DNA from: Takakia lepidozioides
Taxonomy: Eukaryota; Plantae; Bryophyta
Assembly: GCA_030704615.1 (NCBI GenBank)
Contig: CM060731.1
Coordinates: 63,116,001 to 63,180,000 of the forward strand
Direction: 5' to 3'
Length of the DNA stretch: 64,000 nt
Shown: one piece after another, positions 1-63,559 of the stretch
How positions within the stretch are numbered: the first letter of the stretch is position 1
Layout of the letters: each line of letters opens with the position of its first letter
Program-made: the position numbers and the translations under genes
The notes under the pieces: generated by a model
Told to the model about the DNA's origin: nothing
Databases searched by the model: none
Seen by the model: only the letters and a program-made list of their open reading frames with translations

Positions 1-47
1 GAGATCAGATCTGTGCAAAGGAGAGCGTGTTTGAGGTTTGTTAAAAA

Positions 48-33237: not shown

Positions 33238-33919
33238 ACAGAAATAGTACTATATGGACAATTAGTGAATGAATGGAAGCAGGTCTGAAGGTGTTGGGGG
33301 GGTCAACAAAGGGCAGAACAAATCCCATCAATGACTAGTGTAATTGCCAATATTAATGGCTTTGATGCCTTTCTACATTAAATTTTCAGGAGTTTGGAAC
33401 ATCTACAAAATTCAAATTCTCCAAGATTTATGAGCTGTAAAGACGGCAATTCCACCTTGGGAGCCTTAGTACCTATTTTCCTTAATTTTCAAGGACAGGT
33501 GGGACGTAGGTTGATATTAATTACTTGATATTAATTATTAAATATCCCTGATAGAAAAGTATATTTTGTAAAATAATATATATATATATATATATCCTTG
33601 ATAAATGCAAAATATGTAGCCCAGCTTCGGTAGAGTAGGTCTTAGGGGGCCTCAAAAAGCAGGGATGGCCTAATGGAATCCCAGAAGATAATTAATAATT
33701 AAGCGGTGGGGTGGGGGGTATTAATAGGGATTCTTGTGGGGTCCGGACCGTGCTCCTCCGACTTTTTAATTGCCTGCCAAATCGTGCACCCAATATAATA
33801 CTTCTTGGCTCTATCAATCATTGCTGCCCTCTTTACACTTCCTTGTATGTAGTTTGCATGTTTTTTTTCTTTTTTGGTTTGACGAACAAGCAAGCGACCA
33901 TCCCGACAATTTAGCGGTG

Positions 33920-34960
33920 GGGCTTGTTTGTCAACACTTGTTCGGCCACCTTTACAATAATTTATAGTTGTGACAACCGTCAACGACTCATCGGCTCCTC
34001 GCTTTGTCGGAGACACAAGAGAGATGATGGACAGTTTACGGGGTTGGTTGGGCTTGTTTATCAATTTTCTGCTGAAAAAACCGTCAACGACTCATCGGCT
34101 CCTCGCTTTGTCGGAGACACAAAGAGATGATGGACAGTTTACGGGGTTGGTTGGGCTTGTTTATCAACACTTGTTCGTCCACATTTACAGTAATTTTCTG
34201 CTGAAAAAACCGTCAACGACTCATCGGCTCCTCGCTTTGTTGGAAACACAAGAGAGATGATGGACAGTTTACGGGGTTGGTTGGGCTGGTTGGTCAACAC
34301 TTGTTCGTCCACATTTACAGTCATTTTCAGCTGCAAAAACCGTCAACGACTTGACTCATCGGCTCCTCGCTTTGTCTGAGACGCGAGAGAGATGATCGAA
34401 AAATTAACGGGGTTTGGTCGGGCTTGTTCGTCCACCTTTACAATAATTTTTAGCTGTGAAAACCGTCAAGGACTCATATGCTCCCGGTTTTGTCTGAGAC
34501 GTAAGAGAGATGATCGAACAAATACGGGGTTGGTCGTGCTTGTTTGTCAACACTCTGTCCACCTTTGCAGTACTTTTTAGCTGTGAAAACAGTCCACGAC
34601 TCATTTGCTCCCCGTTTTGTCAGAGACGCAAGAGAGATGATCAAACAATTTACGGGGTTGGTCGGGCTTGTTTGTCAACACTTGTTCGTCCACTTTTACA
34701 ATACTTTTTAGCTATGAAAACCGTCCACGACTCATTTGCTCCCCGTTTTGTTTTGTCTGAGACGCAAGAGAGATGATCGAAAAATTAACGGGGTTGGTCG
34801 GGCTGGTTTGTCAACACTTGTTGGTCCACCTTTATAGTAATGTTTAGCGGTAAAAATCGTCAACCACTCATCTGTTACTCGTTTTGTCTGAGGCGCAAGA
34901 GAGATGATCAACAATTTACGGGGTTGGTCGGGCTTGTTCGTCCACCTTTACAATATTTTA
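33920..34960. repeat. ~120-bp tandem minisatellite (about 9 units)
   Basis: Repeating aaccgtcaacgactcat...gagac.caagagagatgat...acggggttgg...cttgtttgtcaacacttgttcgtccac. It grades into a related repeat family at 34960-35270, 36135-36450 and 46640-47620. Confidence 0.9.
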
Positions 34961-35273
34961 TAGTTATGAGTACATCTCATGCTCCCTTCGTCTGGATGTG
35001 GGTGTCACATTAGAGATACTTGTGCGTTATCAACAACATGTGGATATTGGATTTTGAAAATACTTGGATCAATGTCCGGGGATACAAAAAAAATGCTATA
35101 CCCCATGTTTTTTATTTGAAAACACACTAGTTTAACCACCATCCAGCGTTAGTCTGATTCATTCATTGATCAATGTCCGGAGTAAGAAAAATGTGATACC
35201 TACCCCATGTTTTCGATTTAAGATAATGTAGTTTGATTACCTTACAGCGTTAAATACTCATTCATTCATTTAA

Positions 35274-36130
35274 CCCTTAACTTCCTATGGAACCCGTTTC
35301 GGGTTTCATAGAACATGATATATTAACGTAACTTTTGCAGATCTTAATATTTTTAGGTAGTTTCTTCAGCAATGAACGACCTGACGACATGGCTGGTCGT
35401 CTCCAATTGGCAGCATGCCATTTGGTGAAAGTCTGCCACATCTAGAAATTTCCAAAAACCGGAGGGTCAGATGTGCTCTTGCATGGAGGGGGGCCACGTA
35501 GACTTGACTGCTACATGGCCATCTCTGATTGGACATCACTTCAGGCCACTGGGCATTCAGTTTTTTTTTTTTTTTTTTCCATTGGACAATTTCTACCATT
35601 GGGTGTGGGCATAATTTGGACCAGGGTGTAGGTGTGAAGAGAGTCACTCCCTCACCAGAGGGATTTGGAATTTGAGCAATATTTCATAGCATCTTGTGGA
35701 GGCTAAATCCCAAATTCTAAATCTTTGTAATGAAGGTAGTTTGAACCCCCCCCAAAAAAAAACACATACAAAGCACCCCTGCTAAACCTGACATTAACCC
35801 CTCATTTTTTGCATGGACATGTCATTCCTACCACAGATTAGGAATGTGTGGAATAAACACTCCACAAAAATCTAAAAACCTCTCAAATTAGTTGGTCAAG
35901 GCTCAAAAACCATGTTTTCAAAAACGGAAACAAAAAAATTCATCCTCTCTAAAACCATATAATCTCCCACATTTCACAATGAAGTTCATTTTTGGTGAGT
36001 GCATGCAGGTGCCAAGTGCGCACCCACGTGTAAGGTTTATTTTTCTGGATGATTTTTGATAGGTAGTTAGTACTGGGCATGGGTAGGAATTTTTAGGTGT
36101 CAAAAAATGAACCATGTAGGAAGTTAAGGG
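35274..36130. mobile_element. piggyBac-like non-autonomous element (857 bp)
   Basis: TTAA on both sides (35270-35273, 36131-36134) and perfect 14-bp TIRs CCCTTAACTTCCTA / TAGGAAGTTAAGGG. Removing it restores a sequence collinear with the paralogous repeat at ~47407-47470. Confidence 0.85.
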
Positions 36131-38925
36131 TTAATGTTAGACTGCCTTTGCAATATTTAATAGTTTTGTTATCTATTGAAAACCGTCGGTTCCTGTCCTC
36201 CTGTTTGTCTAGCTGTGGTGTCACTTTAGAGATACTTGTGCGTTACCAAGACCCCCCGTTGTTGGATTTTCAGAAAACCGCACCCCATGATTGTCCGGAG
36301 ATACAAAAAAAGTGATACCCCATGTTTGTGATGTAAAGCCCTCTAACAAGTAAACGAATGAATGAATATTGTTTAACCAACATGGTGATTAAACTAGAGT
36401 CTCTTTATTTAGTGGTTTTGTCATCTATGGACGACTGTCAATGACTCTTGTTTGCGTCGATCTTGGTGGTCAGAGTTTCTCGGTAGGTGAGCAGCTCCTC
36501 CTTGGTCCAAAGCACAATGTCTTTGGTCGCCCTGCTGCCCATTAACCAGTTAAGTGCTTGCGTCCCTGTCTCCTTGAAGGGGTGATCTCTATCCAGTACC
36601 AACGGTGTAACACATAAAGAACAAGTAGCCCCTATACCTAATGAACAAGTTACCTTATAGGCGTCGCTTTTTCTCCAAGAGTCGCGAGAGTGGGTGGTGA
36701 GGCTTCAATGCGAATCCCACTACTGCTTAGTTGGTGCCCGTATCACCAAGTATTTCTCAATGTAAAACCCACCACTGCTTAGTTTGTGCGCATATCACCA
36801 AGTATTTCTCACTACAAAATTCACCGCCGCCGCTATAGGTTTAGGGTTTCTGGCTACACTGCTGAAGGTTTCGCCTCGCTGAATTGGCGCAGATGTACAC
36901 CAGTTCTCTATACGAGAGTTGTATTGGTATATAGGGTTAACCCGGGTATCAATAGTGGGTATCAATCTAGTATGAGAGAACCTACCAGGCGGATGACGGC
37001 TACAATACCCAAGATAGACCAGTGTTACCCTATTTCGGGCCGCCACCCTACCAGACTCATATTGAGACCTCTCATGAATGCAGAGCGCGATACCAGTTTC
37101 AAAGACCCTGATTCCCCTCTTGAATTTTGGGTAGGGTGTTGCAAAATACTAACATACATTCTAGGGAAGGGTGACGGATGTGTAGAGGGAACCTTTGGGC
37201 AGCGGATTACAGTTAGGGTCACAGGAGATTTGTCGGATTTGGGTGGTTGTGTAAGTGCAGCTATTGTCAAGTTATTTTACCACTAGTGTGAAACTAGCTA
37301 GGAAATAGCTAGCTTTTACATATTGACATTTGGGATTGGCCCAAGTGTCAATCCAGGGGTCAAGGCAGATTTAGGCCCTGGAGTGGTTATCTTCACGGCA
37401 AGCGCATGAGGCTCATCTTTCTCGAGTTGAGCCTCACCGCGCCTAGCTATGGCGCCGTAGTGGGATTCCCCATGGCGTGGGGTGCACTTGGCTTGACTTG
37501 TATTTGAGTGATGAGGTTATATATGCATGAGTTTATGCTTCAGATTTGTGAGCTTGTGCTTGTATTCTTCTTCTTTATCACTCGAGAAAGATCAGCTCGT
37601 ATCTATGAGTGCTAGATACGAGTTAGTTGTAGCACTTGTGGTTTTTTGCTTGAGATTGGAGAAACCAAGTTGTTATGCAAGGAGCACCATGGAGCTCTTG
37701 GTTGTTAGAAGCGGAGGCGATGTGGGTTACAAGTGGTAGACCTTGGCATTCGATCTTCAGCTTCAGAGATGATGAAAGCACCATGCTGCAGGTAATTCCA
37801 GAGCACCTTGATGGTTTCAGATTGTGTACATGCATGAGCAAGCACGATTGGGAAGAGGCAACGGCAAGAGCAGGGCTGGAACAGGAGCTAAGAGGGCGGC
37901 GGCAAGGCCATGGAATGTGCACCTGGGGTTCAGAGCTTGGGAAGAAGAGCTCTTGCACCACAAGAGAAGTGTCTTGTGGCTGGAAATGTAAGCCTTGGGT
38001 TTCAGGAGCTTGGCAAAGGCTGTGGAGTGCTTAGTTTGTCTTAGAGAGCATCAAGGAGCCAAGGAGCCAAGATAGGGGGCTGATATCTCTTGTGTGAAGA
38101 GGTTGCATGTGTGGAGCATGTATTCAGCTCATTGAAGCTTCATCTTCAAGCTTGGAGGGCAAAGCAAGGAAGAGGGAAGGGCTGACTTCCCTTATGTGAA
38201 GGCAATGTGTGTGGAGCTGCTATCAGCCTGGTGAAGGCTTGCACTTTTAGGTGGGGAGTGCAAGGAAGGAAAGGAAGGGGCTATGGTTCCCTGAGGGCAT
38301 GTAGAGCTGCTTTCAGCCTGCTGAAGCTTGTATTTCGGTTTGTGGGTGCAAGAAATGAAGCCAAGGAGGAGATGATTCTCTTATGGGGAGAGTGGGGCAT
38401 GTGTGGAGCATGCCTCAGCCCATTGAGGCTCTTGTTTTCAAGCCTTAGAGAGAGTAGAACGGAAGGTCTAGGGCTGGTTCACTTGAGTGAAAAGAAAAGC
38501 ACTTGAGGGCCTATTGAGTTGGGTTTCAACTTCAAGCTTGATGAATGAAAGGAGCGCAACTCTTGAAGCAACAGGTGTAGAGGGCTGGATAGGCTCTAAG
38601 ACAGATGTTATGGCCAATGAGAGTGTTGAATGAGTGCTCACAAGGGCTGGGAACCAGCAGGGCTTGGTTATTGCCATTGAGTTTAGTGCGCGTGTTTGGG
38701 GGGAGGCCTAAGTGAGAAAGAAGGCTTGGTTGGGGCACCACCTCATGGCTTAGGGCTACTATGGTGGTGTGTGTGGGAGCCGAAAGAGCAAGGTACCTTG
38801 CTGATTTCCTCACAGCCACATCATAGCTCGGTGGAAAGAAGCCTAGAGTCCAAGAGACACAAACCCTAGCTTGGCGTGGCTAAACCCCCTGGAGAAATGG
38901 CTAAACTGCCAGAGCGGCCATGTGT

Positions 38926-39900
38926 GGGGCTGTGACCTGTGGCATGACAGGCTGTGATGGGCTGTGATGGGCTGTGACAGGCATGTGTGTGTGTGTGACG
39001 GGCTGTGTGTGCCTGAGGCCTTTGTGACGGGCTGTGAGGGGCTGTGACAGGCCGTGCCCTGGCCTTTGGGGCAGGGCTGTGAGGGCTGTGACAGGTGCCT
39101 GGGGCCCTGTGACGGGCTGTGCTGTGACAGGTGCCTGGCCTTTGGGGCTGTGACGGGCTGTGAGGGGCTGTGACAGGCTGGCCTTTGGGGCTGTGACGGG
39201 CTGTGAGGGGCTGTGACAGGCCTGAGGCCTTTGAGGCTGTGAGGGGCTGTGAGGGGCTGTGACAGGCTGGAGGCTGTGACGGGCTGTGAAGGTGGGCTGT
39301 GCCTGTGAAGGCTGTGACGGGCTGTGACTGTGACAGGCCGTGCCTGGCCTTTGGGGCTGTGACGGGAGGGGCTGTGACAGAGGCCTTTGAGGGCTGTGAG
39401 GGGCTGTGATGTGACTGCTGTGAAGTGTGAGGGCTGTGACAGGCCGTGCCTGAAGGCCTGTTGTGCCTGGGGCTGTGAGGGGCTGTGACAGGCCGTGCCT
39501 GAGGCCTTTGGGGCTGTGACGGGCTGCTGTGAGGCCGTGCCTGAGGCCTTTGGGGCTGTGACGGGCTGTGATGGACGGGCTGTGAGGGCTGTGACAGGCC
39601 GTGTGGCCTTTGGGGCTGTGACGGGCTGTGAGGGGCTGTGACAGGCCGTGCCCTGAGGCTGCTGTGAGGGGCTGTGAGAGGAACTGTGAAGGCCTTTGGG
39701 CTGTTGCTGTGTGCCTGTTTGGGGCTGTGACGGGCTGTGAAGATGTGCTGACGGGCTGTGAGGGCTGTGACAGGCCGTGCCTGAGGCCTTTGAGGCTGTG
39801 TGAATGTGAGAAAAGAAAGATCTGTGACAGGCTGTGAGTGAGGGCTGTGACAGAGGCCTGTTGTGCCCAGTGGCCTGTGGGTGACGGCTGTGACCAGTGA
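38926..39900 (+). repeat. GGGCTGTGA(C/G) 10-bp-based tandem array with a higher-order ~45-bp unit
   Basis: Dozens of gggctgtgac/gggctgtgag units, interspersed with aggccgtgcctgaggcctttgg. Confidence 0.95.
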
Positions 39901-40622
39901 GTGTGGGCCTGTGCTGGTCTGTGCCCGTGTTGACCTGTGGACGGCCTGTGCTGACTCGTGGAGGCACTGGTGGACTGCCTAAGGACTGGCATGTGGTCTG
40001 GAAGGCCGAATTTTGAAGCTCGTGGAGGGCGGTTTGAGGAGTATCTTCATGATATTCCCATGGTCATGCAAGTGAGGGTAGAGAGGAGAGGCAGAGTGTT
40101 GGGATGAGAGCATGCTGGGGTTAGGCATTGCTTTAGCTTCTCTTCCTCGTAGTTTCCACCCTCTCATTAGGCCAAGACCTTTCCGTAGGTGGAGGCAAGA
40201 GTCAGTCCGGGTTTGGGCTGGGGTGTCCTTGCAGGAGCAACACCGTGGAGTTGTTTTTGGTGTGGGGGAGTTGTCGTTCTGATTTCTTGTGTTTGGATCC
40301 CCTCCATACCTGCATGCTTGACTGTGCGCCATGCTAGTTTTTGTGGGCGCTTGTTTTTATAGGTGATTGGTCCGGATTTGATCACCGGCCAGTCCTAGAG
40401 CATGCTGTCGATGGTGAGGCTGGGGTGATGACCAGCCAGACCATCATTGTTTCTCCTGTGGTGAGGTTGGAGGTGATGACCAGCCAACCATAGGAGTGCT
40501 TGCGGTGGATGCAGGTACAGGTGTAGGCTATGTTAGGAACTTAGTATTCCAAACCATAAGCCGCAACAGGTTCTCTACCCGTTTACCTTGTGGAGAGGGG
40601 TTAGGGACATGTTCATGACCGG

Positions 40623-42020
40623 TTGAGTGTCAACACGGAGGTGCCACTAGTTGCTGGGACAGTGCCGGTTCGAGCACTAGCGATACTAGTGGGTACACGA
40701 GACGAGGTGTGCGGTTTAGGCCACCTTCACCTCCTGTGTCTTCCACGGAAGGTTCTGATTCGGATTGTGAATCAGGAGGACTCATACCGGCGGTGCAAGT
40801 TGTTTCTTTGCCATTGTTGTGGGACACAATGGAGGAGATGTATGGAGCTACCAAGGGGCCACGAAGGTACTCTGGGGCGGTGGGCACCATCGTTGGATGA
40901 TTTTATCCAAGAGTTTGATAGTTGGTGTGATTTGCAGCAAATGCGCAATCCACAACTATTTACGCCTTTCATGGCATGGAAGGGGCTGTTTCAGCACCTT
41001 GAGGGGCCGCCTATGGATGATTACCATGAGTTCAGGCGGGGGCATGAGGTTGAGATCGAGGAGTGGAGGATGTACTGGTCACCCGACTATGTCTCCATCA
41101 CTAGGGGCACTAGAGCCACGAGGGCAGTGGCTACACCTGCCGCTGCACCGGCAGCTTCAGCAAGCAGCAGTGGGACTGGTGGTACAGTAGCTACGACGTC
41201 CACCCAAGCCACTACCGCACCAGCACTAGCACCCGTGCCTGCCTTCAACCCTGTTGTGGAGTTCTTCGAAGAGTTGAGAGGGAACTACCAAGGGGTGAGG
41301 ACAGAGAAGTTGCGGAGCTTGCAAGAGTTCCAACGGAAGCCGACCGAGAGCTTGAGGGAGGCTTTCACTCGCATGAGGCGCTTGATAAATGTAACCCAAG
41401 GGGTTACGGAAGCTCAGGCAGTCCAATTCTGGTATGGGATATTGGACAAGGAGCTGAGGAGAAGGGTGCGGGATGCAACTCTCCTACAAGCGGCCCAACC
41501 CACCTTAGCAAATGTGTTTTTGCTGGCAGAGCGGATAGAGCTCAACATGGTGGAGGAACGAGTGGTCATGGTGGGATTTGCTAAGGAGACACCACGGGGT
41601 AGTGGTGCTCCTAGCCAACCACTACCTCAACGTGCTCAAGGCAACAAGGGGGCTCAGGTGAAGCTCAGGGAAGGGCAGAGAGGACCTCAGATGCAGGGGT
41701 CTCTCCCTTCATTTGCTGGCCAACAACGGGCGGATGTGGTGTGCTGGACATGTGGAGGACCCCATGTCAAGAAGGATTGTCCAGAGGGAGGCAAAGGGCC
41801 GGCACATGCACAGCCTGCACAGTTACAGTGTGGGCATTGTGGCAAACACGGGCATGGAGAGGCTCAGTGTTATGGTTTGCATCCTGAGTTGCGCCCAGGC
41901 CAGTTCCAAGGGAACAATGGTGGCCGGGGGCAGGTGGAGCAGCCCAGAGGGGACGAGGTGGCCAGCCACGAGCCAAGGGCAAGCTCAACGTGGCCAAGGA
42001 CGCGGAGGTCAGGGTGTTGA
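40623..42020 (+). pseudogene. gag: Gag polyprotein (frameshifted) with two CCHC zinc knuckles
   Basis: Retrotransposon capsid-like LQEFQRKPTESLREAFTRMRRL...FWYGILDKELRRRV. Knuckles CWTCGGPHVKKDC (41742-41780) and CGHCGKHGHGEAQC (41829-41870). Confidence 0.85.
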
Positions 42021-42779
42021 CCAAGGCATGGCCAACCGGCTTCAGCAGCTAGAGCAGAGGCTCGCTGCCATGGCTACAGCTCAGGTGGTACCGGCTCTAA
42101 GGCCGGATGGTCCACCTCCTGCTCCTGAGGGAGGAGATATGGGAGGCATGGGATTCATGTGTGGAGCAGCACTACCACTAGTGCAGGTGGAGTCTGCTGC
42201 AGCCGTGACTCGAGGAGCAGCACGAGTTCCTGAGCCACGAGGTGCAGAGGTGGAGTTATCACAGCGTGGGGAGGCAAGCCGTCAGGCTAGGCTTCCTCAG
42301 TCATTCACATTGGCGGAGACAGTGTCGACGCCATCCATGGCACCTAGTTCTCGCCCGACTGTTACCGAGGCGGAGGTTACTATGCCATTGGGGAGAGCTA
42401 CACGGGTAGCACCACTACCTAGTGTTGCCAAGGCTACGGCAGCTAGTGTGCTGCTAGGAGCGGCCACATCTGTGTGCCAGGCTCCATTGTTCTCGGCTAC
42501 CATGATTGCGACGCCGGGGGTAAGACCAGCTGAGGTGTTCAGGCTGGCAGCTACACTCTGTGAGAGTGGGGAGGTTACTTCATCTTCTGCGGAGATAGTG
42601 GAGGTGTAGTGCCGGAGGGATCCTCGGATTTGAGGGTCAAGACTGCCACGGCGGCGCCATGGCAAGCTGCAGCTGCCAGGTTGATGGAGCTGCCAGCTAG
42701 GCCAGCCATTGAGCGCGCCATGGTGACACCTGGAGTTGTCATGTTAGACAACCAGGATGACATTTTCTGTTTGAGTGGA

Positions 42780-43130
42780 CCGGCAGGCAAGAGGTACCGG
42801 CCACTGCGGGTCTTGTTGGACTCGGGAGCTCAGCCATTGATGCTGGCAGAGCTGCTATTGCAGGCTTGGGCCTCACGGAGGCGGATATGGAGCCTTGTCC
42901 TTTCCAGATACAGACGTCTTTGGGAGGATCGGAGCAGGCTCGGGGCATGACACGGCGTGAGTTGGCTATCAGACTACGGCCGGATCACCCTACAGATGGC
43001 TCAGTGATGCGAGCCAAGGCCATTGTGACAGACGCAGTCTCATACGATGTCCTGGTTGTGGGGCAGTGTTGTACCCCATGGGCTTCACCCTGGATTTTTG
43101 GGAGGAGTCAGCTTCCTATAGGCCTGCATG
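42780..43130 (+). pseudogene. Retroviral-type aspartic protease
   Basis: RVLLDSGAQPLM (DSG at 42819-42827), IQTSLGG flap, and YDVLVGG across a 1-nt frameshift. Confidence 0.8.
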
Positions 43131-43527
43131 GCAGTCAGGGGAGGGCCGGCGTGTGCAGCTCCCTGTGACGTTCATAGGAGGAGTTGCGGTTGCCCAGCGA
43201 GGCAAGATCCGACACTAGCAGCATTCACAGCGGCAGTGAGTTGGCCTAGAGAGTTGCTTGAGGGCAATGCTCATTCAGAGGATGTACCACCTCCGGAGAG
43301 CAGGATGACATGTATGGTATGGCGGAGTTGCCTACCATGGTTGCTCAGACTCCATTGTGGGGCACGAGCAAGGATTTGCAGCGGGATGCTGATCGACGGG
43401 TGCAACAAGCCTGGGTGGAGGCTTTTGTACCGTCAGGAGAGGAGGAGAGTGTGGGGATTGCACCAGGACCACCTCAATTGTCTCCATTGGACACCACACC
43501 TATTGTGTGGCAGTATCCGGATGAAGG

Positions 43528-44490
43528 CATTTGTCTTCTGACTTGTTTGGCGGGATCAGCACCGGATTGGCTGCTGTGTTACAAGCAGGTGTACGAGTTG
43601 GCGTTACCTGTATGTGGAGAGGGATGAGACTGCACGACGCGTTTCACTTCGCCATGTTGCTCAGTTGGTGCAGCGGTACCCTGAGTTGTTGTCGGTGTCT
43701 GCAATTCGTGGATATCAGCAGGCCTTGCCAGCAGACATTTCGTTGCTGGGGGCGCAGGATTTGGAGCGGGTTGGCTCCATTGATCTGGTAGTGGCAGGTT
43801 GGCCCTGCCAAGGGCATTCATCAGCCGGGCATGGCAATGGATTGCGAGACTCGAGGTCGGGTCTGTTTTGGGAGATGGTGCGGGTTTTGCGCCACTTGCA
43901 GCTTCATCAAGCTGTATCTCCAGCATACATCTTGGAGAATGTGCCACTGATGGGCGATTCTCGGGCCAGGGTGATGGCCAGTGTGCATCAAGTCCGGTCG
44001 TGGCTTGGGTCAGCAGTGTTGCTAGATGCAGCTACAGTGGGGTCACGGCTCATCGTCCACGGCTATGGTGGACTAACTTGATGCCACCCGCACTGCTCAA
44101 GCGTGCATTTGATGGGTGCAGCGGCCAGCACATCTCACAGTGGATAACATTCTGGACACAGGGAGGCAGTCTCAGCGTGTGAGACACGATGACCGTTCGC
44201 CTTTGGCAGTGGTCAACAAGGTGGGTCAACCACGGGCAGCATTACCTACACTGCTCAGCTTCCCAGGATCGCATGCTTTCCGGGATAGTGGACCTGGCCT
44301 CCTGTGGGATGCTCAGTTGCAGCAGTTAGTGGAGCCTAATGCTGACGAGCGTGAGCGGGCAATGGGTTTTACCACTGGTACCACGCGGTGTCGTCTCTTT
44401 CTGAGGCATCACGTCGTCAAGTGTTGGGGCAAGCAATGGATCTCAATTGCTTGACCTGGATTATCAGCTTGGCTCTAGCTGAGCAACGCA
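43528..44490 (+). pseudogene. C5-cytosine DNA methyltransferase domain (DNMT3/DRM-like motifs, canonical order) in the Gypsy pol
   Basis: Motif I (D)LFGGISTG (~43541-43566), II YVERD, III DI, IV VVAGWPCQGHS (PC at 43803-43808), VI ILENV (ENV at 43935-43943), VIII AHRPRLWWTNL (44048-44080), IX ERERAMGF (44347-44370), X RRQVLGQAMD (44412-44441). About five 1-nt frameshifts. Confidence 0.92.
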
Positions 44491-44899
44491 GAGTGCGGAG
44501 TACACTTCCCTCAATGGTCTCTCTGCCTACCGAGACGGTTCAGCAGTGAGTGGGGGCGAGCATGTGAGGACCACGGGGTGCATGCATCCATGGCACACGT
44601 GGGAGGTGCTCGAGGTCAGAGGGAGTTGGCAGCCAGGCGGCTGTGATAGATGAGGTTGGGGATTCTTCTCGGGTTGAGGAGGTCCTCAATGATGAGATGA
44701 TGGGGCAGGATGAGGTCTTGTCATTGACTGAGCAGGGGGAGTACTGCTCAAGAGGTTGCAGCATAGTAACCACGGGACGCGTCCTCTACCTCTAAGCCCA
44801 CTGGACTTAAGGTTGTAGTTACGGAGGACAATTGGGAGCCTGACATTGGACCCATTGTCACCGGAGGAGAGAGACGACGTATACGGCGGTTCTTGAGGG

Positions 44900-45533
44900 C
44901 TTACAGGAATTGCTTTGCCTTCAGTTTGAAGGACTTGGGAGCACTGAAGGTCAAGAGATCCGTATTGAGTTGGCCACTGACACGCCAATCTTTCGGAGAC
45001 CCTATAGATACAGTGACATGGAGAGGTCTTTGATTCAGATGAGGACTCAAGATCTCTGGGAGGCAGGTTTGGTGGAGCTCTCTGGTGGAGAGTATGCTTC
45101 AGCCACAGTGATGCCAGCCAAGAAGGATGTCTATGGCAATTGGACGGAGAGACGTATGTGCGGTGATTACCGGCCTGTAAATCGTCAGACCAAGTCCGAT
45201 AAATATGCCATGCCAACACCAGAGGAGATCTTTGATGCCATCGGGCATGCTAAGGCCTTTAGCACTTTGGATTTACGATCCGGATATCACCAGTTGCCAA
45301 TCAAGAAGGCGGACAAGCAGAAGACGGCATTCTAGGGGATCAATGAGCACGGCAAGGATTGCCTATACCAGTGGCGGTTCTTACCATTTGGGCTTAAGAA
45401 TGCTCCTGCAGAGTTTCAGAGAGTCATGGATAGGATTCTAGCAGGGGTGGACTTTGCTCGGTGCTACATAGATGACATCATCATCTTTAGTGTTACGATG
45501 GAGGAGCATGAGAGACACCTTCAGGTGGTACTG
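44900..45533 (+). pseudogene. Ty3/Gypsy reverse transcriptase (truncated; one TAG at 45333-45335)
   Basis: PIFRRPYRYS...YASATVMPAKKD...RMCGDYRPVN...FSTLDLRSGYHQ...KTAF*...LPFGLKNAPAEFQRVMD...YIDD (45465-45476)...HERHLQVV. Confidence 0.95.
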
Positions 45534-46145
45534 TTAATCCTCCACTGAGGTGCGGCGATTTTGATTTTGAGATTTTGAAGTGTCGGATGGCTCTTCAAGC
45601 TATCAATGTGATGAAACCTTTCCTGCAATTTGCTGTGACATTTAATGTAAGTAAGGCTCACAATATGTTGGCCCTTATACTTGATCCCCGCTTCAAGGGG
45701 CTGAAGTGCATCACCCAATATATTGGAGTTGAGAAGGCTCGTGCCATTGTGCAAGAGTATGATAGGAAGGTGTTGATTCTTTTTCTGGTTAAGGTGCATG
45801 CGAAGCTGAATCCTACAATGGCAAACTGTGCCCACCCGCACAACCAATTCCTGGCAATGCCTTGTTTGGTGCTCTGACATCCGGTGAAGAATCTTGCGAG
45901 GGGTTATTGGCTGCTGAATTGTCAGTTTTTCGTCGCCTTACTATACTAGCAGATTGCTACGATGCTCCTTTAATTTGGTGGCATTTGAATGCTAGTCAGT
46001 TTCCTTCTTTGTCATATCTTGCTCGACAAATACTTGCCATTCCAAGATCCCAGATTGAAACGGAGCGAATTTTTAGTGTTGCTGGTGTTCTCACAGCTTT
46101 GCGGTGTTGTCGGCTTGGGCTTTCCAATCTAGATAGTCTTCAGCT
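45534..46145 (+). pseudogene. hAT transposase C-terminal fragment (dimerisation domain)
   Basis: LALILDPRFKGL and PLIWWHLNASQFPSLSYLARQILAIPRSQIETERIFSVAG...RLGLSNLDSL. Confidence 0.9.
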
Positions 46146-46639
46146 TATGATGTTTGAGTCTTGTTATGTGATCTTCTCATTCATGCTTTGCATGTATAAT
46201 GATGCATGATCTGTATGTATTGGAAACCCTTGATGTCACATGGAATTCAGCCTGTCTGTGTCGTGAGAATAAACTTCATACCTGGGTTGATATCTGTCTG
46301 GTGTGTCGTGAGAATAAATTACTTCATACCCGGGTTGATATCTGTCTGGTATTGCACAATTGAACCAAACCCTATTATCGATACCACATACTGGTTCTTG
46401 CAAAATGCAATATTTATACCCGTATTCTATATCCTTGTTTTGCAATACCTAGGGCCATACCTGTGTTCACATTTCAAAACAAATCAAGCCCCGGACCCGG
46501 CTGGTATGTTAAAAATTCAATACCAGTACAACATTGCTCTATACCCGCTTATGATTTTATTCCGTTTTGAAAACATATAACTCCCATGACCGTGGGTTGC
46601 GCTCACGCGAGCGTGCACGTGCTCACATAATACCAACCC

Positions 46640-47620
46640 CCTAGTTTAATCACCATGATGGAGCGTTGTACACTATTCATTCATCCATTTGCTTATTAGA
46701 TGGCCTTTACAAATTTTAGCAGTTTTTGGGTCAGTCAACCACTTCCAAGGTGGTATGTGCCCATTACCACTAGGCTACAACTTGGTTGTCAAAATAAATG
46801 TATGAATAGCGTACAACCATGCCAGATTAGACTAGACTTTTCTCAAATCGAAAACGCGGGGTGTCTCATTTTTTCGGACAATGATCCGGTGCGGTATTTT
46901 CAAAATCCAATATTTGTTGGTTCTTGATAAAGTGTGGCTATCTCTAAAATGACACCCACACCAAGACAAAATAAGGTTTAGACTGTTTTTGGGTTCAATC
47001 CACCCTTGGTGTCACAACGGTGTCCACCTTTTTAGCAGAAGGCAGTAACCTTCGGGGTGAAGAGACACATAATTTACGCTTCATTGGGGAGGCGTCAAAT
47101 ATTATTATTATTATTCATACGTTTACTTGTTTGTCCACCTTTACAATATTTAATAGTTTTGTCATATCTCTACACAACCGTCAAATGACTCCGCCTTTGT
47201 TTTTCGTCTTGGTGTGGGTGTCACGTTAGACATAGCCATGCTTTATCGAGAACGGACAGATATTGGGTTTTGAAAAAGTGGTACCGGATCATTGTCCGGA
47301 GAATACAAAAATGAGATACCCCATGTTTTTCGATTTGAATAGGGCCCACCCCCGGAAGGGGCAGTAGCTGTGAGGCGAAGTGGCTCTTAGTTACGGTTGT
47401 ACACTATTCATTCATTTACTTGTTCGTCCGCCTCAATATCTAATAGTTTTGTCATCTCCCTAGAAAACCGTCAAATGACTCGCTGCACCTTGTTTTTTTG
47501 TCTTGGTGGGGGTGTCACGTTAGAGAGAGCCATGCTTTATCAAGAACCGACGGATATTGGATTTTGAAAAAGCCGCACCGGATCATTGTCCGGAGATACA
47601 AAAAATTGAGATACCCTATT
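46640..47620. repeat. Repeat family shared with 34.9-36.4 kb; one inverted and two direct copies
   Basis: ggtgtcac.ttaga...gatattgg.ttttgaaaa...ggatcattgtccggaga..caaaaa..gataccc at ~47200-47338 and ~47500-47617; reverse complement at ~46843-46972. Confidence 0.8.
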
Positions 47621-52852: not shown

Positions 52853-55800
52853 TTATATCACTTTTAATTCCTCGGGAGGAATGCCAGCTGGGTCAATGTC
52901 CCAGGAGTCTGCTGGGATATTAAAACTCTCGGTGCCAAGCATTTTGTAAGCAGGCACTCTGTGTGAAAGTAACCCCATAGAGTGGTCAGGAAGTTTTCCT
53001 GTCTGATATTCTGGCTTCCAGAGTGTTCGAAAACCAGGCACCTTTGCGAGCACCTTGACTGTTGGAGCTTGTGCCAAACCGTAACTTTCTACAATCTCCA
53101 GCAGCCGGAAACGGTGGCGTGACCTTGCAGCATCTTTCACACGTAGCTCCTTACGCTTTCCATCATTCTTGTACATTGCCCACACCTCACCTTTCCTTGG
53201 GTAAACTGAAACTACCTCATTTGGTCCCTCGTCAACAACCATCTCATGAGAAAAACAGTTGATTGGATAACCGACATCAGATGTCTTGCCATCCTTGAAT
53301 TTTCCGATGGTTTGAGGGTACCCACTGTTCTGCTGTGGCCACACACAGGCAAATTTGTGAGCAAATTTCGAGGCCCTCCTGGCAAATTAGATGTTTACTG
53401 AGTCATATTGCAAACTTGCACCTGTTTAGTCTTGAGTAACATGTGCTTCAAAGCAGGGGCAGCTTTAACAGTCTAAAGTGAACCAAGTGCTCTGCCCACA
53501 ATCTAGGAAAGAAAGAGACAGTTTAAGAAAAGTACATCTAGTAGAGCATCACGACCTTTAAAAATAGTTTGCCATTGCCTTGTTGCCAGAAAGCTGCCTA
53601 ATGTAGCCCCTTTTTTGTGTGATTGAACTCATCCCAAACGGAACAGCAAGACATGTACTACTTATGGAACAGCAAAGCTATTGCTCTGTGAATTTGTGAT
53701 GAGAAATGTAAATCAAGATAACCTGTTGAAACTGTAGAGGTGAGTACTGAGGCAACATCCACGACACATATGCTTTGAACGCCGGTCCTGATTTAACCAC
53801 CCTTTGGATGCGCACCCAAGTGCGAGGCATGAAGTCAGCATCGTCGTATAACGCCCATATCTACCACACCCACTCTGTGTTAATATTAATATTATATTAA
53901 TATTCATGTGAAGCCTGCCTATAGTTCTGTCAACTAAGAGAGAGTGTACCCATCGGGCTGTTTTTACAGTTTCTTTTGCTCAGAGAATCCAGACAGGGTT
54001 AGAACAGAGCACAAAGGTGGGGATAAAGGAAGAGGAAAGGGGGAAGGTAGGATACAGGACAAAAACTGAAGGCATCCAGCATTGCTGAAGCCTAGCTCCA
54101 GTGGTGACACGTACCTTAACTGTGTGAATGTCTGAGGGAAGGAAAGGAAGGGAAGGAGAGGAAGTTTAACGTCCAGAAATTTACATAGCAGGGAAAGAAA
54201 GAAACTTTTTGGAGGCCCATAGGGCCCGTGGGACGAAGTAAAACGACTCATCAAGAGGAGAGACTTGTGAGAGAAATAGAAAGGGGGAGATGTACTCAAG
54301 GCTTGCTTGGCTTAGCCTTGTGGCCATAAACTCTGTCTGCTTTGGAGGGAGAAAGAGAAAAAAATGTAAAATGGACAAGTAAAAAATCCATAGCTTGTTC
54401 TAGAGAATTCCAATTTCAATGAATTTCAATGAATGTCTGACCCAAAAAAGAGAAGAAAAATGATGTTGTGGTATACTGCGTGTTTTTTAACATGGTTCTC
54501 TGTCCGGTCTCCGTCGAAATTGTAGTGGTCTGCATCCGGTACAGTAGTTTCGACATCCTCCCATTCCTCATCGGACACCGGTTCAGTTGAGGCACGAGCA
54601 TGACCTGAAGACTCAGAAATGTAGTTAGGGAGGATTTCTGGTGAACTTGCAACACTATCCAATTCTCAGTGCCCTACAGGGTTGCTAAGCGCATAGGGAG
54701 TTCTCCATCAAAGGTTACTTTTCACAGTGACTATGCAATGCCACCGGACCCCTTCGGTTGACCCATGGTTTCTTTGGAGACTTTGCAGCATCTCTGTCCC
54801 TCTTACTTGAGACAATGTGCCACCTCCAGATGTCTTTTAGAGCGAGGACCAATTCGGTGAGCTAACCACCCAGTTGGGTGTGTGAAGCTGCTTTATAGCA
54901 GTCTGCAAAAAATCAACTATCTTCACGAAACAAGTTGATGAAAAATGCTTGTAAGTTCAAAAGAAAATACCAGCAGGTCCAGAAAATAACTAAGCCTGGT
55001 GGAGAACAAACAGTCCTAAACCAACAGAGCTGAAGCCCTCACATGACAACCTAGAAACTGCAGCACTGTGTTGATGATATGGGTAAGGAAAGACACCCAG
55101 CTAACCATGCCACTTCTGTAGAGCTTTGGCAGGATGGCCGCCTCCCTTGCAAGGCCATGTGGGGCCTCCTTTGTCCTTCTCTGATTCGGTATGACTCCTT
55201 TTTTTCGCATTTCTTGGCCTTAGCACTCTCCTTCCTTTGCTCTCCAGGATTTGAGCAATGGTGCCTCCGTTGTAATGAGTTTGTCCATTCCCAACATCAG
55301 GCTGAAATCTATCCTCGCTCTCGTTGCCACCTTCATCTGGGAAGTCATCCAAAATCTCCTCTTTCACAGGCATGACTTGCCCTGGCCACTCTTCCCCTTT
55401 CTTCCTTTCCAACCAGTCCACGTCTTGCCTCATCTTCTTTCCACGTTGAAAGAGTGCATACTGGCTTTCATCAGAATACTCCAAAATCTCTGCCTTGACC
55501 AGACGAATGTCACATGTTTTCTCCGAATTCTTTTTTGTAGGTGGGTCAGGACAAGTGTTGGGCGATCTCCCGTCTTCCATGGCACAAACCTTTCCTGTAC
55601 TTAGATTTCCTGCTTCGGTTTCTGTGCCTTGTGTAGGACACCGCTTTCCAGTATATTCTGGTACCCGTGTCTCGGAGCACTCCTCAAATTCGGCCTTGAT
55701 TTCCTTAATCCATGTCTGCCACTTGGCTGCCGGGTTTCCAGCCCCTCTACCCCTGGAACCAGGAAATATCTTAGATATTGCTCTTTGATTTTAGACATTG

Positions 55801-58800
55801 GCCATCACATACTCTAATAAGCCCCTTGTCCCTAGGCATATCCAGGATGAGATCAACCTCAGCCAAAACTTGCCATAGCACTATGCTTGGACATCAACTC
55901 CTTGCATGGAGCTGAGTGTTAATCTGAGAGCAACTTTGACCTTTTATCAGAAAGCACAATGTTGAATGCAACACTGCTAGTGCCACCACCTAACAGACAT
56001 GTGTCACATGCATGGCATGGTCGCATTGCCAGCAAAAGGTAGAAAAGGGCAATGTGAAATGATGAACTTCAGGGCCTTCACATTCCTGAGTTTGAGGAGA
56101 CCTGCAAGTTTCCAGCAAAAGTTTCCCAGGTTTCTCACTACATGACCTTCTCCCTGCCTACACCGTGTGGAAGCTGTGTACAATCGTTACCATAGATTCT
56201 TTCAGAGAATTACAGATGAATAATGAATGGAAAATCTTACTGAAATTGAAGTGGCAATCAGCTGCCAACAACCCGAAACAAGCTGAAAGTACTAGGATAT
56301 CATCAACAACTCTATGGTATGAATGGTATCTGTTGGAAACCTCTAACAAATATCTCAATTGAAAGAATTTGTTCGCTTAAGGTTGCATCTGAACCAACAG
56401 CAGTTGTTTTTAATTTCATAGCCCTATGTGGAGCTAATTATCCAATGAACATCAGATATGGGTGTATACAACCTTAAGGATGCACATAAAAAGATTCTCA
56501 TATAGTACCTGATGCCCATATCAAACGAACTCTCGATGAACTTCTCTTTCAGTGTGAAGTCTCTGCTCCCATTCAACTCTGGCAAAATTTGACCATTTGT
56601 CTTCCTCTGGAGCCCCTTCGAGCCCAGGATAAGATCACAGCCTTCATCATCAAATTGAACCAAATCTGTGGATGAGTGCATTCCTTTGTTCCCAGGCCAC
56701 ACATTAATAGTTTCTCCTTCAGCCTCTCTCTCTCCATTGCCATCATCTCTCTCCTTTCTCTTCCCCGCAGTGCATGGGCGGTCTCCGTTCCCACCCTCAG
56801 CCCCACGTCTGCTCAACCCCTCCTTGACTTTGAGGCTCGCACCCCTTCCTTTCTGGTCACTAGTGTTGCTTAGAATAGAGGCCTTTGCATTGACAGTGCC
56901 TTTCAGTGGAACACCACAGTAAGCTTGGGGCAATACCTTTGTTCCAGGGGCAGGCTGAACAGCACCCTTTTTTTTCTCTCTCCCTCTGCTTCGCGTGGTA
57001 ACCTCTCTTTTGTCCACTTTGATGCCTTCATCCCTCTCGTCCTCCCCCTCATTGGACAACCCTTCCAGAGCACCCACTATTTCTCTCTCAAGTAGTCCTG
57101 CAAAGTCCTCATCATCATCATCATCATCATCATCATCACTGACCTGAGTATTTTCGAGGACCTCGGTGTCACTGTCAGAAAGAGTGATAAATTTCTCTCT
57201 ATTTAAACCAGCAGAATCAGAAGAGCGAGCACTTTTGTCACAGCCTACCACTCCAATGCCAGCTGATTCACTACGATCACCTCCTTGCTGAGACACAATG
57301 CCCCCTTGGCCAGTAACAGGGCTGTCAGACCCACCTGCAAACCCTCTGTTCTCACCATCCACACAAGGGGTACAGGGCTTGATCCTCAAATCATTGCATT
57401 GATATGCGAAATCAGATAAATTCAACTCAACTCCTTTCTCAGCGTCATGAACTCCGACAGTATGATTGGAGGTCTGTTGCAGATGTAAGGTCTCCGAAGC
57501 TCTAGGCAGCTTGAGATTTGATTTCTCAGGCGGGATCCTATGATGAGAAAAAAATTCTTCACAAAATGGAGCCCCTCCCTCATTAGGGCTGCCATTCCCT
57601 TTTATAAGACGTGTACCTCCTGTATTCATTTCGTCACACACTGTACAGGTCATGGCTCTATTCACACAAGGAGATCCAAGGGAATTCAAAGCCCTGCTGA
57701 TATTGTCAATAGAAGGTGTTCTGGCACTTTGGGGCTGGGGTTCATACACCCTTGCCTGCCCCTCACAACTCCCCTCTGGTCTCTTGCTGAAACATGAGGT
57801 TTCAACCTCAGCATGGTCGCTGACACCTGTGCAATCCAGCACAGGCCATGTGGAATGTGCATGTGTAGGTGACTCAAAACGAAGTGACTTTGCAGGGCCA
57901 CAAAGTGCGTCACTTGTAAGATCCTTGGAAATTTCAGGAACCAGATGAGGCTGATCAAAGTCATGAACTGAGGTATGCTGCAGCAATGAGACTTGTGGAT
58001 CAATGTGAGGGCTTTGCTCCCCTCCCTCCTTAGGACGCCCATGCCCTTTTTCATGACGTGTACCTCCTGTATTCATTTCGTCACCCACTGTACAGGTCGT
58101 GGCTCTGCTGACACAAGGAGATCCAAGGGAATTCAAAGCCCTGCTGATGTTGCCAATAGAAGGTGTTTGGGTACTTTGGGGTTGGGGTTCAGAAACCCTT
58201 GCCTTCCCCTTACAACTCCCCTCTGGTCTCTTTCTGAAACAGAAGACTTCAACCTCAGCATGGTTGCTAACACCTATGCCATCTGGCACAGACAACCTGG
58301 AATGTGAATGTGTAGGTGACTCAAAACGAAGCGACTTTGCTGGGCCACGAAGTGCGTCACTCGTAAGGTCCCCGGAAATTTCAGGAACTGTGTGAGGCTG
58401 ATCACAGTCATGAACTGAGGTATGCCACAGCAAGGAGACTTGTGGATCAATGTGAGGGCTTTGCTCCCCTCCCTCGTTAGGGCCCCCATTCCCTTTTTCG
58501 TGACATGTACCTCCTGTATTCATTTCATTACCCACAGTACAGGTCATGGCTCTGCTCACACAAGGAGATCCAAGGGAATTCAAGGCCCTGCCGATGTTGT
58601 CAGCAGCAGGTGTTTGGGCACTTTGGGGCTGGGGTTCATAGACCCTTGCCTTCCCCTCACAACTCCCCTCTAGACTCTTAGTGAAACATGAGGCTTCAAC
58701 CTCAGGATGGTCGCTGACACCTATGCCATTCAGCACAGGCCATCTGGAATGTGAATGTGTAGGCGATTCAAAACAAAGCGACTTTGCAGGGCCACAAAGG

Positions 58801-59804
58801 GTGTCATGTGGAAGGTCCTCGGAAATTTCAGGAACCATATGAGGCTGATCACAGTTATGAACTGAGGTATGCCGCAGTAAGGGGACTTGTGGATCAATGA
58901 GAGGGCTTTGCTCCCCTCCCTCGTTAGGACGCCCATGCCCTTTTTCATGACGTGTACCTCCTGTATTCATTTCGTCACCCACTGTACAGGTCGTGGCTCT
59001 GCTGACACAAGGAGATCCAAGGGAATTCAAAGCCCTGCTGATGTTGTCAATAGAAGGTGTTTGGGCACTTTGGGGCACGGGTTCATCAACCCTTGCCTTC
59101 TCCTCACAACTCCCCTCTGGTCTCTTAGAGAAACATGAGGCCTCAACCTCAGCATGGTCATTAACACCTATGCCATCCAGCACAGGCCATCTGGAATGTG
59201 AATGAGTAGGTGACTCAAAACGAAGTGACTTCGCAGGGCCACAAAGTGCGTCACTTGTAAGGTCCTCAGATATTTCAGGAACCATGCGAGGCTGATCACA
59301 GACATGAACTGAGGTATGCCGCAGCAAGGAGACTTGTGGATCAATGTGAGGGCTTTGCTCCCCTCCCTCATAAGGGCCCCCATTCCCTTTTTCATGACGT
59401 GTACGTCCTGTATTCATTTCGTCACCCACTGTACAGGTCGTGGCTCTACTCACACAAGGAGATCCAAGGGAATTCAAAGCCCTGCTGATGTTGTCGATAG
59501 AAGGTGTTTGGGCACTTTGGAGGTGGGGATCAGAAACCCTTGCCTTCCCCTCACAACTCCCCTCTGGTCTTTTGCTGAAACATGAGGCTTCAACTTCAGC
59601 TGTAGAATCCGGGTAAGCTTGGTGATGGATGTTGGGCTCCCACTTGATGGTAAGGTCCTCAGTAGGTCGACCCTTTTTGTTCATGTTGGACCCATTTAGG
59701 TGTACTTTCCTTAAAGCCTTTTGCTTCTTCACCTCAAAAGCACGATATCGCATCGCCATCAACCGGGCCACAGCGGTCTTCTGAGCTTTATCTACTCTGT
59801 CCAC
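52853..59804 (-). CDS. DUF3444-domain protein with a long repetitive N-terminus (multi-exon)
   Basis: Predicted exons: ~59804-56509, 55752-55106, ~54640-54477 (acceptor uncertain), 53860-53723 and 53332-52853. The spliced C-terminus reads VPDADHYNFDGDRTENHVKKHA|IWALYDDADFMPRTWVRIQRVV...|...CFSHEM...VYPRKGEVWAMYK...LAKVPGFRTLW...LSHRVPAYKM...SWDIDPAGIP, typical of DUF3444. The 5' end is unresolved and upstream exons are possible. Confidence 0.8.
57575..59601 (-). repeat. Coding tandem repeat, 447 bp (149 aa) x ~4.5
   Basis: gatccaagggaattcaa at 57673, 58120, 58567, 59014 and 59461, an exact 447-bp period. Confidence 0.95.
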
Positions 59805-61162
59805 CTTCTGCTCCTGCTAGCACCTCGTATCCGTTAGAACTAAGTTACAGGTCTCTGTTTCACATGTAAACAATAAATCAGCCAACCAGAACCTGCTGTG
59901 GTGAAGAGAGGATCAGAAAAAGACCGTTGGCTCACACCCGAAATAGCAGAAAGGCCATAGTTAATTGGAACTCAGCACGTACAGGTAGAGACACACTGCA
60001 CATGTACCTGTGCTGTACATTTACACCCATGATGCAACTGTGTGGTATGCCTCTCAAAACGGTCATGTAGTAGGAGCTCATACAAGTTCTCTAGCACAAC
60101 AAAAGAGGGACAGAGGGAAGGAGGAATCAAAGCAATATTCAAAATGCCGAAAGAACCAACATGTAGTGTTCCCAATCAGCCAAAACTCACCTTTTGGTTT
60201 TCTCAAAAAATGCTCATGTAGTCCCAGCAGTACATAAAACTTGCTGAGCACAAGAAAAAAGGTTGGGAGGGTGATATCTAAGCGGGACTGTAACAACCTG
60301 AGGTCTTGTGCACAAAAATACTGAGTGATCAAGCAAAGCCACACTAGACACTCCCATGTCAGCCCCTCCAATTAATTCATGAATTATATGTTATAGGTCA
60401 TTCAATTGCTCAGAGCTTTGTTATCCCTGTGTAGAATGTCCGGCCTGCAAAACTGCTTTCTCCTGGGTTTTAAATTACAAAAGTAACTCTAATGAGTTAA
60501 AATCACAAAGACTGAACATTAACCTCCCTGCTTGCGGTCCTTTAATAGAATCAGAGACTACAGTGGCATAGGGATATATCATTGTAATTAGAAGAGCACT
60601 TAGGTTTGTATGACTAGCATACTGGACATGGAAGAAATATTCAGGAACTTCTCATCCTTATAAATCAGCATGTGCTAGTAAAGCTGCAAATGTTAACCAA
60701 GTGAACAAAGCTCAAAGCAACAGTGCCACCTCCTTTCGAATGGAATATGTGTAAACATTTGGAGGAAGACCCCAGATTACCAAATACTCAGTTTCCTGAT
60801 CAAGATGCCACGACATGGAGGCCAGTGTGCATATTACATGGGAGATGTGTGATTAGCAGATTGGAGACAAATCTTTGACAGCTTAGACTATCTTCACTTT
60901 GCCTTTAATGTTGGTCCTGCGCTGTACTGAGTTCAATGCGACACTAACTTGTTGTTGAAGTTGTGCTGGTTGTTTGGTGAAATGTTGACGGAATAGAAAT
61001 GAGAGGAAGAAAAGGAGAGAGAGAGAGAAAAAGAGAGAGAACGAAGGACTTTAAAACATCGCTGAAGGCCCCGAGAACATGGAGAGAAATGAAATGAATG
61101 AAATGGAACTTTATAACGTCCACAGAAAGCTCAAAGAGGAAAAAAGAAAGCTGAAAGAGAGA

Positions 61163-62891: not shown

Positions 62892-63559
62892 AAGCTAAAA
62901 GAGAGAGAAAGAGAGAAAGCAAGAAGCAAGAAAAAGAAAGAAAGGGATTCCATAGCATCCACAGAAAGCTCTAAGAGCATAGATAAGAGACAATCAACCA
63001 ATGAAGCAGTAGTGACCAGGCCTAAATATCTGAAGACAGACAAATGTTTGCGCTTCTGTGTTTGATTTGTGTTTGTGTGTGTGGGAAGATGCCATTATGT
63101 AAGCCAAGTACACAGTTTATGCAGTGATTCTAGAGAGACCTTAAATTGTCCCATTCTATTCGTCATTACTCCTTTGGTGGCAAAACACCTATCCAAACCA
63201 GACTAAAAGCATCAAGATAGAACCCAACTTTCTTCTCAGTTACTGAAGTTTAGACCCATCCACACAACTCAAGACAGCATCTCATATAAGACTATATATG
63301 GTGGCGCGGTTACTAACCTTAAGCCTGGCAATGGTGTCTATCAGTAGGTCCAAAACCTCCCTTGCAACTATTGCAGCATCAGGCACTTTACCCAACCTCA
63401 GATTCACCTTCAGTGTCATGTTATGCTTTTTGTCCACCACGGTCCATGATAACTGGCACATACATGTGTTTGCATTAGTGAATGTTAGGGATTTTTCTGG
63501 TTCATAAGCAAGGGCAATGGAGAGTGACATATGATGCTCACAACACCTTTCTCACTGCA

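Follow-up and report, generated by a model that had tools for sequence, protein, structure and literature searches.

A 64,000-nucleotide stretch of contig CM060731.1 (positions 63,116,001 to 63,180,000, hereafter the window) contains a Ty3/Gypsy retrotransposon that encodes a DNMT3-like C5 cytosine methyltransferase (MTase). The reading that we consider probable is that this element, at 37265 to 45533 of the window, is a copy, cut off at its 3' end, from a high-copy land-plant Gypsy family in which capsid, protease and DNMT3-like enzyme share one reading frame, and that the enzyme, by prediction loaded into particles in large amounts, likely methylates newly made complementary DNA (cDNA). The parts of this reading differ in strength. 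The identity of the element is held with high confidence, and kinship with KnitGypsy-Dnmt3, a Gypsy element of the alga Klebsormidium nitens, is quite likely; the chances that the MTase actively methylates the cDNA of its own element are about even. The features of the element, and the remnant that adjoins it, were located as follows.

37265 to 37580, forward strand: 5' terminal repeat A, the left end of the element; 316 bp, begins TGTCA and ends CA
37415 to 37426, forward strand: 12-nt site inside A, 151 nt into the repeat, able to pair with the 12 nt that follow A
37581 to 37592, forward strand: predicted self-priming primer-binding site, the 12 nt right after A
38945 to 39962, forward strand: GGCTGTGA-rich tandem array in the 3-kb leader, covered at high depth
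40622 to 41930, forward strand: gag with two zinc knuckles (Retrotrans_gag E 0.0016, under the curated cut-off)
42708 to 43137, forward strand: aspartic protease, with LDSG at about 42816-42827
about 43510 to 44500, forward strand: DNMT3-like C5 cytosine MTase domain; retains its catalytic residues, reading frame broken at five places
44764 to 44766, forward strand: in-frame stop closing the Gag-protease-MTase frame, a predicted readthrough site, degraded in the window copy
44862 to 45533, forward strand: Gypsy reverse transcriptase (RT), cut at its 3' end; YIDD at 45465, one frameshift, one stop
45535 to 46150, forward strand: C-terminal part of a hAT transposase at the 3' break, outside the element (Dimer_Tnp_hAT E 2.9e-11)

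The original prediction, made from the letters of the sequence, described gag with two CCHC knuckles, a DSG protease, an MTase and a Gypsy RT with YIDD, collinear on one strand, and all four were found in place. The RT matched RVT_1 of Pfam on a single window fragment (E 1.4e-14). Both zinc knuckles are present, although the first (41742-41780) is an atypical CX2CX3HX4C and the second (41829-41870) is canonical. The proposed start of the element at 40623 had to be revised, as the left end lies 3.3 kb further upstream at 37265. Read depth rose from zero at that position in four of four runs, contigs started at 37264-37265, loose contig ends before 37265 corresponded to the junction at which B, the second end repeat of the relatives, ends in related loci, and another loose end, behind 37580, matched the start of B. 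At the other side, the hAT remnant adjoins the cut RT directly, and depth drops there to the low level of the flank. Because this remnant begins at about 45535, RNase H, integrase and the 3' repeat are missing from the window copy, which is non-autonomous if the 3' truncation is real. Flanking the element on both sides is a family of 120-140 bp repeats (33870-35060, 36130-36470 and 46620-47600), dispersed and in tandem, some of them inverted, and possibly either a miniature inverted-repeat transposable element or a Helitron-related repeat.

The window MTase matched the Pfam DNA_methylase profile on one fragment (E 3.7e-13), and 319 of its 329 codons aligned to an open relative when read with X at the breaks. 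It retains F/G of motif I, the PC of motif IV (43803-43808), ENV of motif VI and both arginines of motif VIII, in non-permuted order. A profile of the relatives gave DNMT3A as its best match (E 8e-22), followed by DNMT3B/C, DRM and bacterial enzymes. Motifs I-IV of this profile aligned to the N-terminal part of DNMT3 and to the C-terminal part of DRM chains, in agreement with the earlier statement that the order differs from that of plant DRM. Identity with plant DRM was rejected, since the DRM order is permuted and that of the window MTase is not. An AlphaFold model of the MTase domain of a relative (L004; pLDDT, the model's own confidence score, 87.7) matched DNMT3A/B over its full length in a fold search (E 3.7e-20, TM-score 0.72), so that both sequence and fold bear out the DNMT3 resemblance. 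The invariance of P and C of motif IV among loci was imposed by the search pattern and carries no evidential weight.

The original prediction had the MTase cleaved from the polyprotein together with the other parts; a place in the Pol frame is contradicted by the relatives. In all 43 loci that aligned across the MTase-RT linker, an in-frame stop was found at one and the same place (TAG in 26, TAA in 17), followed by CAACCC in 40. Readthrough of stop codons is favoured by the context CARYYA, and the sequence of one locus (L019, TAG CAACCA) is close to it. Open Gag-protease-MTase proteins (P0007, from a Marchantia model, and P0108, P0110 and P0243) were 1278-1332 residues long and ended 93-113 residues past motif X; the window stop at 44764 sits in a degraded context. 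Because this conserved stop separates the MTase from RT, the MTase was assigned to the end of the Gag frame, where it is likely made at capsid level, far above the amount of RT. Readthrough would make RT, RNase H and integrase at a low level, and every Gag would carry an MTase that the protease would free inside the particle. Many copies of the enzyme per particle are predicted from this position.

Related proteins were found in several bryophytes. The first protein search returned 63 proteins, with names from Marchantia polymorpha, Calypogeia fissa and Sphagnum at no more than 77% identity, and two Marchantia models (P0008, P0011) combine DNA_methylase, RT and RNase H in one protein. Protease-MTase proteins were named from Closterium (two) and Mesostigma viride, and a representative search gave 484 clusters at E 1e-30 or better. 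The domain order in relatives is gag-protease-MTase-stop-RT-RNase H-integrase-PHD. Eighty metagenome loci were found via the MTase, a search in which members without it could not appear; 39 have gag or protease upstream and RT downstream of the MTase with conserved spacing, and two have another layout. Seventeen of these 80 loci extend to RNase H and integrase. A PHD finger follows the integrase in 11 of the 18 loci with enough sequence, and the integrase of one relative (P0051) is of the rve type. A search of the Atlas returned generic DNA_methylase clusters only. In viral contigs the only matches were to ordinary MTases, at 27-41% in 19 loci, and nothing pointed to a viral donor.

These results demonstrate that the MTase is a family-wide trait, present with the same layout in land plants, and not a one-off capture. 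We give almost no weight to the alternative that an MTase retrocopy landed once in a dead Gypsy element, or that the contig is chimeric or algal. The window copy is indeed broken and truncated, and no contig among those listed bridges its 3' break. The spacing of the domains is, however, conserved in dozens of loci, plant genes lie on the same contig and the family occurs in named bryophytes. In another sample, a single contig runs from protease through MTase (42788-44464) and differs at 17 places, and the run that covers the stretch best also contains the 3' flank without differences.

The stretch or part of it was contained in 13 of 18 listed runs, from six studies, and even a run with 1.75 Mb assembled covered 27 of its 30 bins. 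In run X1, contigs over 37265-45530 had depths thousands of times that of the 3' flank. The element family is thus high-copy in its host, summed contig depth not being equal to copy number. The runs listed included none of RNA, a result without bearing on expression. A frameshift-aware alignment located 17 frameshifts and one stop (at 45333, in RT) in about 1550 codons of the window copy. The frameshifts comprise 15 single-base losses, one two-base loss and one gain; a paired loss and gain among them may stem from the alignment itself. Five are in the MTase (near 43539, 43601, 44050, 44115 and 44387), which has no stop in 317 codons. By comparison, 51 environmental copies had 157 stops and 29 frameshifts in 16,067 MTase codons, a count that omits 12 duplicate loci and copies shorter than 250 codons. 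A high-depth contig matched the window over 350 nt with no substitution and 3 gaps. Because frameshifts outnumber stops, unlike in the environmental copies, and the high-depth contig shows gaps only, most window frameshifts are probably assembly errors and the copy is probably young.

Selection on the MTase was assessed from substitutions, as had been suggested. Between the window copy and L004, amino acid identity was 70% for the MTase (non-synonymous proportion pN 0.18; synonymous proportion pS 0.72, saturated), 77% for RT (pN 0.14, pS 0.75), 71% for gag and 59% for the protease. Among 58 distinct copies of 73 of the peat-moss type, changes in the MTase not attributable to deamination were scored as shared when common to at least four copies. 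There were 18 synonymous and 15 non-synonymous shared changes on 242 and 742 sites, respectively (pN/pS about 0.27); private changes in the same copies gave a pN/pS of 1.39. For RT, shared pN/pS was about 0.11 on 18 changes. Because pN/pS is low for shared and high for private changes, these data indicate that the MTase is under purifying selection while the element spreads and decays after insertion.

The ends of the element are unusual. Relatives carry two end repeats, A of 339 bp and B of 113 bp, and paired direct long terminal repeats (LTRs), which the original prediction had proposed to search for, were not found; insertions read either A-coding-B (L033, L071) or A-coding-B-A-B (L054, L074). 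The B-A-B part is also present at the 3' end of L018 and L057, and partly in L004, and the loose ends indicate this layout for the family of the host. Insertions begin TGTCA and end GACA or AACA, with a 4-bp target duplication in five of six two-ended copies. A purine tract lies before B, and B meets A via the palindrome GACA-GC-TGTC. Peat-moss-type repeat DNA profiles detected A weakly (E 0.098) and B not at all in the window. The 12-nt pairing between A and the site after it was attained by 0 of 2000 random leader 30-mers, and relatives keep such a pairing although its sequence differs; of 17 copies, 2 pair over 16 nt, 9 over at least 9 nt and 5 not at all. Transcripts are predicted to start about 150 nt into A. 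We read the ends as a permuted LTR with 4-bp target duplications, in which B+A would be the ordinary LTR produced by self-primed reverse transcription. The integrase would join the DNA at the palindromic B/A junction within this LTR, giving both A-coding-B and A-coding-B-A-B insertions. Recombination, or collapse of repeats in the assembly, could also explain the ends with one B.

A profile search extended the family to green algae. It gave 130 proteins, 120 of them listed, including proteins of Haematococcus, Monoraphidium, Chromochloris, Cymbomonas, Enallax, Tetradesmus and Hariotina. Of 122 proteins with domain hits, 62 read RT-RNase H-MTase-integrase-PHD, so that a sister MTase follows RNase H and precedes integrase. 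Many of these chlorophyte-type elements have open frames (L076:3-5501, L078:7904-13024 and proteins P0123-P0204). All element MTases fell on one branch (Shimodaira-Hasegawa-like approximate likelihood ratio test, SH-aLRT, 99-100), apart from the host DNMT3 of Closterium and from dinoflagellate and bacterial enzymes. The bryophyte-type and chlorophyte-type layouts lie on either side of this branch, and the RT tree, which comprised family members and one other RT, splits likewise. The window element was placed among the bryophyte-type elements in both trees, and elements of Mesostigma and Closterium grouped with its family at SH-aLRT 93. On these trees, in which hosts are thinly sampled, a single origin of both layouts is possible. 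An environmental Gypsy polyprotein (P0207) with a divergent MTase upstream of RT-RNase H-integrase has a long branch in both trees.

The original prediction had left a choice between persistence in embryophytes and entry into them. From the trees and the saturated synonymous sites, inheritance from streptophyte algae is likely and fits better than recent entry. Independent capture of a host DNMT3 by land-plant elements, or sideways transfer, appears improbable. In its favour, no name from Physcomitrium, hornworts, ferns or seed plants occurs among the matches listed, and within the tree Sphagnum sits with Marchantia instead of following the hosts. The single branch of the element MTases, however, stands apart from the host DNMT3 of Closterium, the protease-MTase order is identical in Mesostigma and Closterium, synonymous sites are saturated between the window and peat-moss-type copies, and the element MTase lacks the DUF3444 domain carried by plant host DNMT3. 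A broader and more tentative proposal, which we consider possible but doubtful, is that of an ancient green-plant Gypsy lineage that predates the chlorophyte-streptophyte split and has carried one DNMT3-like enzyme throughout. Its land-plant branch would combine capsid-level loading of the enzyme, pre-methylated self-primed cDNA and a DDE integrase acting at an LTR-internal palindrome. If true, its life cycle would be part LTR and part DIRS-style, and LTR-finding programs would miss it.

The proposed role of the MTase is that methylation would make new copies resemble host DNA or keep them quiet. Several observations weigh against this role or against the wider reading in which it stands. Observed/expected CpG was 0.64 in the MTase, 0.53 in the adjoining hAT remnant and 0.32 in a host frame; because the MTase ratio is below neither of the other two, the MTase shows no CpG depletion and no sign of self-methylation. 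Methylation was not seen when the K. nitens domain was tried in yeast, a result that its authors called inconclusive (PMC5890265). Selection among shared changes is weaker on the MTase than on RT, on small counts, and the MTase and RT of an environmental relative (P0093) are not separated by a stop. The layout A-B-A-coding-B, which a two-LTR circle cut at random should also yield, was absent from the 17 listed 5' ends. The trees are quick searches without bootstrap and include one plant host DNMT3, on a long branch; no named Klebsormidium protein was among the matches listed, and the trees are without Klebsormidium.

Some of these points would suit an MTase kept for another job, such as binding or methylation of the element's own RNA, binding of DNA ends or titration of host DNMT3, an explanation that we regard as unlikely. 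The lack of CpG depletion and the inactivity in yeast are joined here by the synthesis of the MTase with Gag, as is the case for structural parts that bind nucleic acid, and by the EC that chlorophyte-type MTases often have instead of PC in motif IV. Against it, the window MTase retains every catalytic residue checked, the whole domain matches the fold of DNA-bound DNMT3, and DNMT3s of dinoflagellate elements methylate CG de novo (PMC5890265). Methylation of new cDNA by the packaged enzyme remains the reading that we prefer.

Retrotransposons with a C5 MTase have been published before. KnitGypsy-Dnmt3 is a Gypsy element with DIRS-like repeats whose Dnmt3-related domain has no intron, is not permuted and is under purifying selection; it was called an acquisition in the K. 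nitens lineage (de Mendoza et al. 2018, PMC5890265). In the window family, too, the coding region of a Gypsy element includes a Dnmt3-like domain of non-permuted order that retains catalytic residues; both share Gypsy domains, a streptophyte host and, by the figure legend, a DIRS-style repeat layout. Compared by description, the MTase of KnitGypsy-Dnmt3 lies inside the Pol frame, in one alga and in few copies, whereas that of the window family ends the Gag frame of a high-copy land-plant element. SymbioDIRS-Dnmt3 and SymbioLINE-Dnmt of Symbiodinium also carry a C5 MTase, and SymbioDIRS has A-coding-B-A-B repeats and demonstrated CG methylation (PMC5890265), but they use a tyrosine recombinase or are long interspersed nuclear elements (LINEs) rather than having a DDE integrase, and dinoflagellate MTases fall outside the window clade. 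The EpiLTRs of Cymbomonas and Euglena are LTR elements with a C5 MTase, reported as sister to DNMT4 and accompanied by Dam and a chromodomain, and were set apart by their authors from the streptophyte Gypsy-DNMT3 (bioRxiv 10.64898/2026.05.21.726589).

Other known elements share single traits with the window family. PAT, Ngaro and VIPER have A1 at the 5' end and B1-A2-B2 at the 3' end, but integrate via a tyrosine recombinase (PMC6681497), unlike the protease, rve integrase and 4-bp duplications found here. Membership in DIRS/PAT/Ngaro was rejected on the rve integrase and protease of the relatives; the tyrosine recombinase itself was not searched for. Troyka, with CG..CG termini, a 3-bp duplication and animal hosts only (PMC12440569), was rejected on the TG..CA ends and 4-bp duplication of the window family. 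Tcn1/Tf1-Sushi chromoviruses are moss Gypsy elements likewise predicted to self-prime, but they have a chromodomain and ordinary LTRs, and the word methyltransferase has 0 occurrences in the available text of their survey (PMC6317226). Host DNMT3s of non-flowering plants (PpDNMT3a/b, MpDNMT3b) share the non-permuted DNMT3-type domain, but are DUF3444-bearing cellular genes on a branch separate from the element MTases (PMC6453930, 10.1101/2021.02.12.428880). The window gene order gag-protease-(MTase)-RT, completed by RNase H and integrase in relatives, is that of Ty3/Gypsy.

KnitGypsy-Dnmt3 has been referred to as streptophyte, with land plants unnamed, in the available parts of PMC12344493 and 10.64898/2026.05.21.726589. 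A window-type element was not described in those of 10.1101/363937, 10.1101/2021.02.12.428880, PMC6453930, PMC6317226, PMC12885004, PMC6681497, 10.1101/2022.06.16.496473 and PMC12440569. No land-plant or chlorophyte report was found in the literature searched, subscription papers, Repbase and preprint supplements lying outside the search. The kind itself was published in 2018 with KnitGypsy-Dnmt3, and related proteins are already present, unnamed, in Marchantia and Sphagnum annotations; the Gag-side MTase and the permuted LTR were not found described in the available texts. Some DNA_methylase gene models of Marchantia and Sphagnum are transposon frames and not host enzymes. The permuted ends predict unusual integration and explain why LTR surveys could overlook the family. 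The role of a retrotransposon MTase has been open since 2018 and until now tied to algae that are difficult to handle; it becomes testable in the model plant Marchantia polymorpha, for which methylation mutants and methylomes exist.

Neighbouring genes supported the predicted land-plant host. The window contains an intact RALF peptide gene (45-422, forward strand, E 1.4e-20), an AP2/ERF gene (5453-8022, reverse strand, AP2 E 2.7e-14) and DUF3444. To our knowledge, RALF is confined to land plants. The host was assigned to land plants because these genes share the contig, and it is likely a bryophyte since the named close relatives of the element are from liverworts and peat mosses. Downstream of the AP2/ERF gene is a 383-codon serine/proline-rich frame, probably a second exon. 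Matches of the window DUF3444 were at only 26-37%, the named ones from angiosperms, three window proteins had no entry in the protein collection searched, and a host DNMT3 gene sought near this DUF3444 at 53 kb was not found. Upstream of the DUF3444 exon (52856-53386) lies a 1130-codon open frame (56424-59816, reverse strand) with five 447-bp (149-residue) tandem repeats of 75-88% identity and no convincing Pfam match; the two perhaps form one J-domain/DUF3444-type gene. A 218-codon frame at 19915-20571 (forward strand), which is coiled-coil-like over one stretch and matches nothing in Pfam, is surrounded by inverted repeats at 19.7-22.7 kb. Fragments resembling LINE reverse transcriptase were seen by eye at 62092-63065 (reverse strand).

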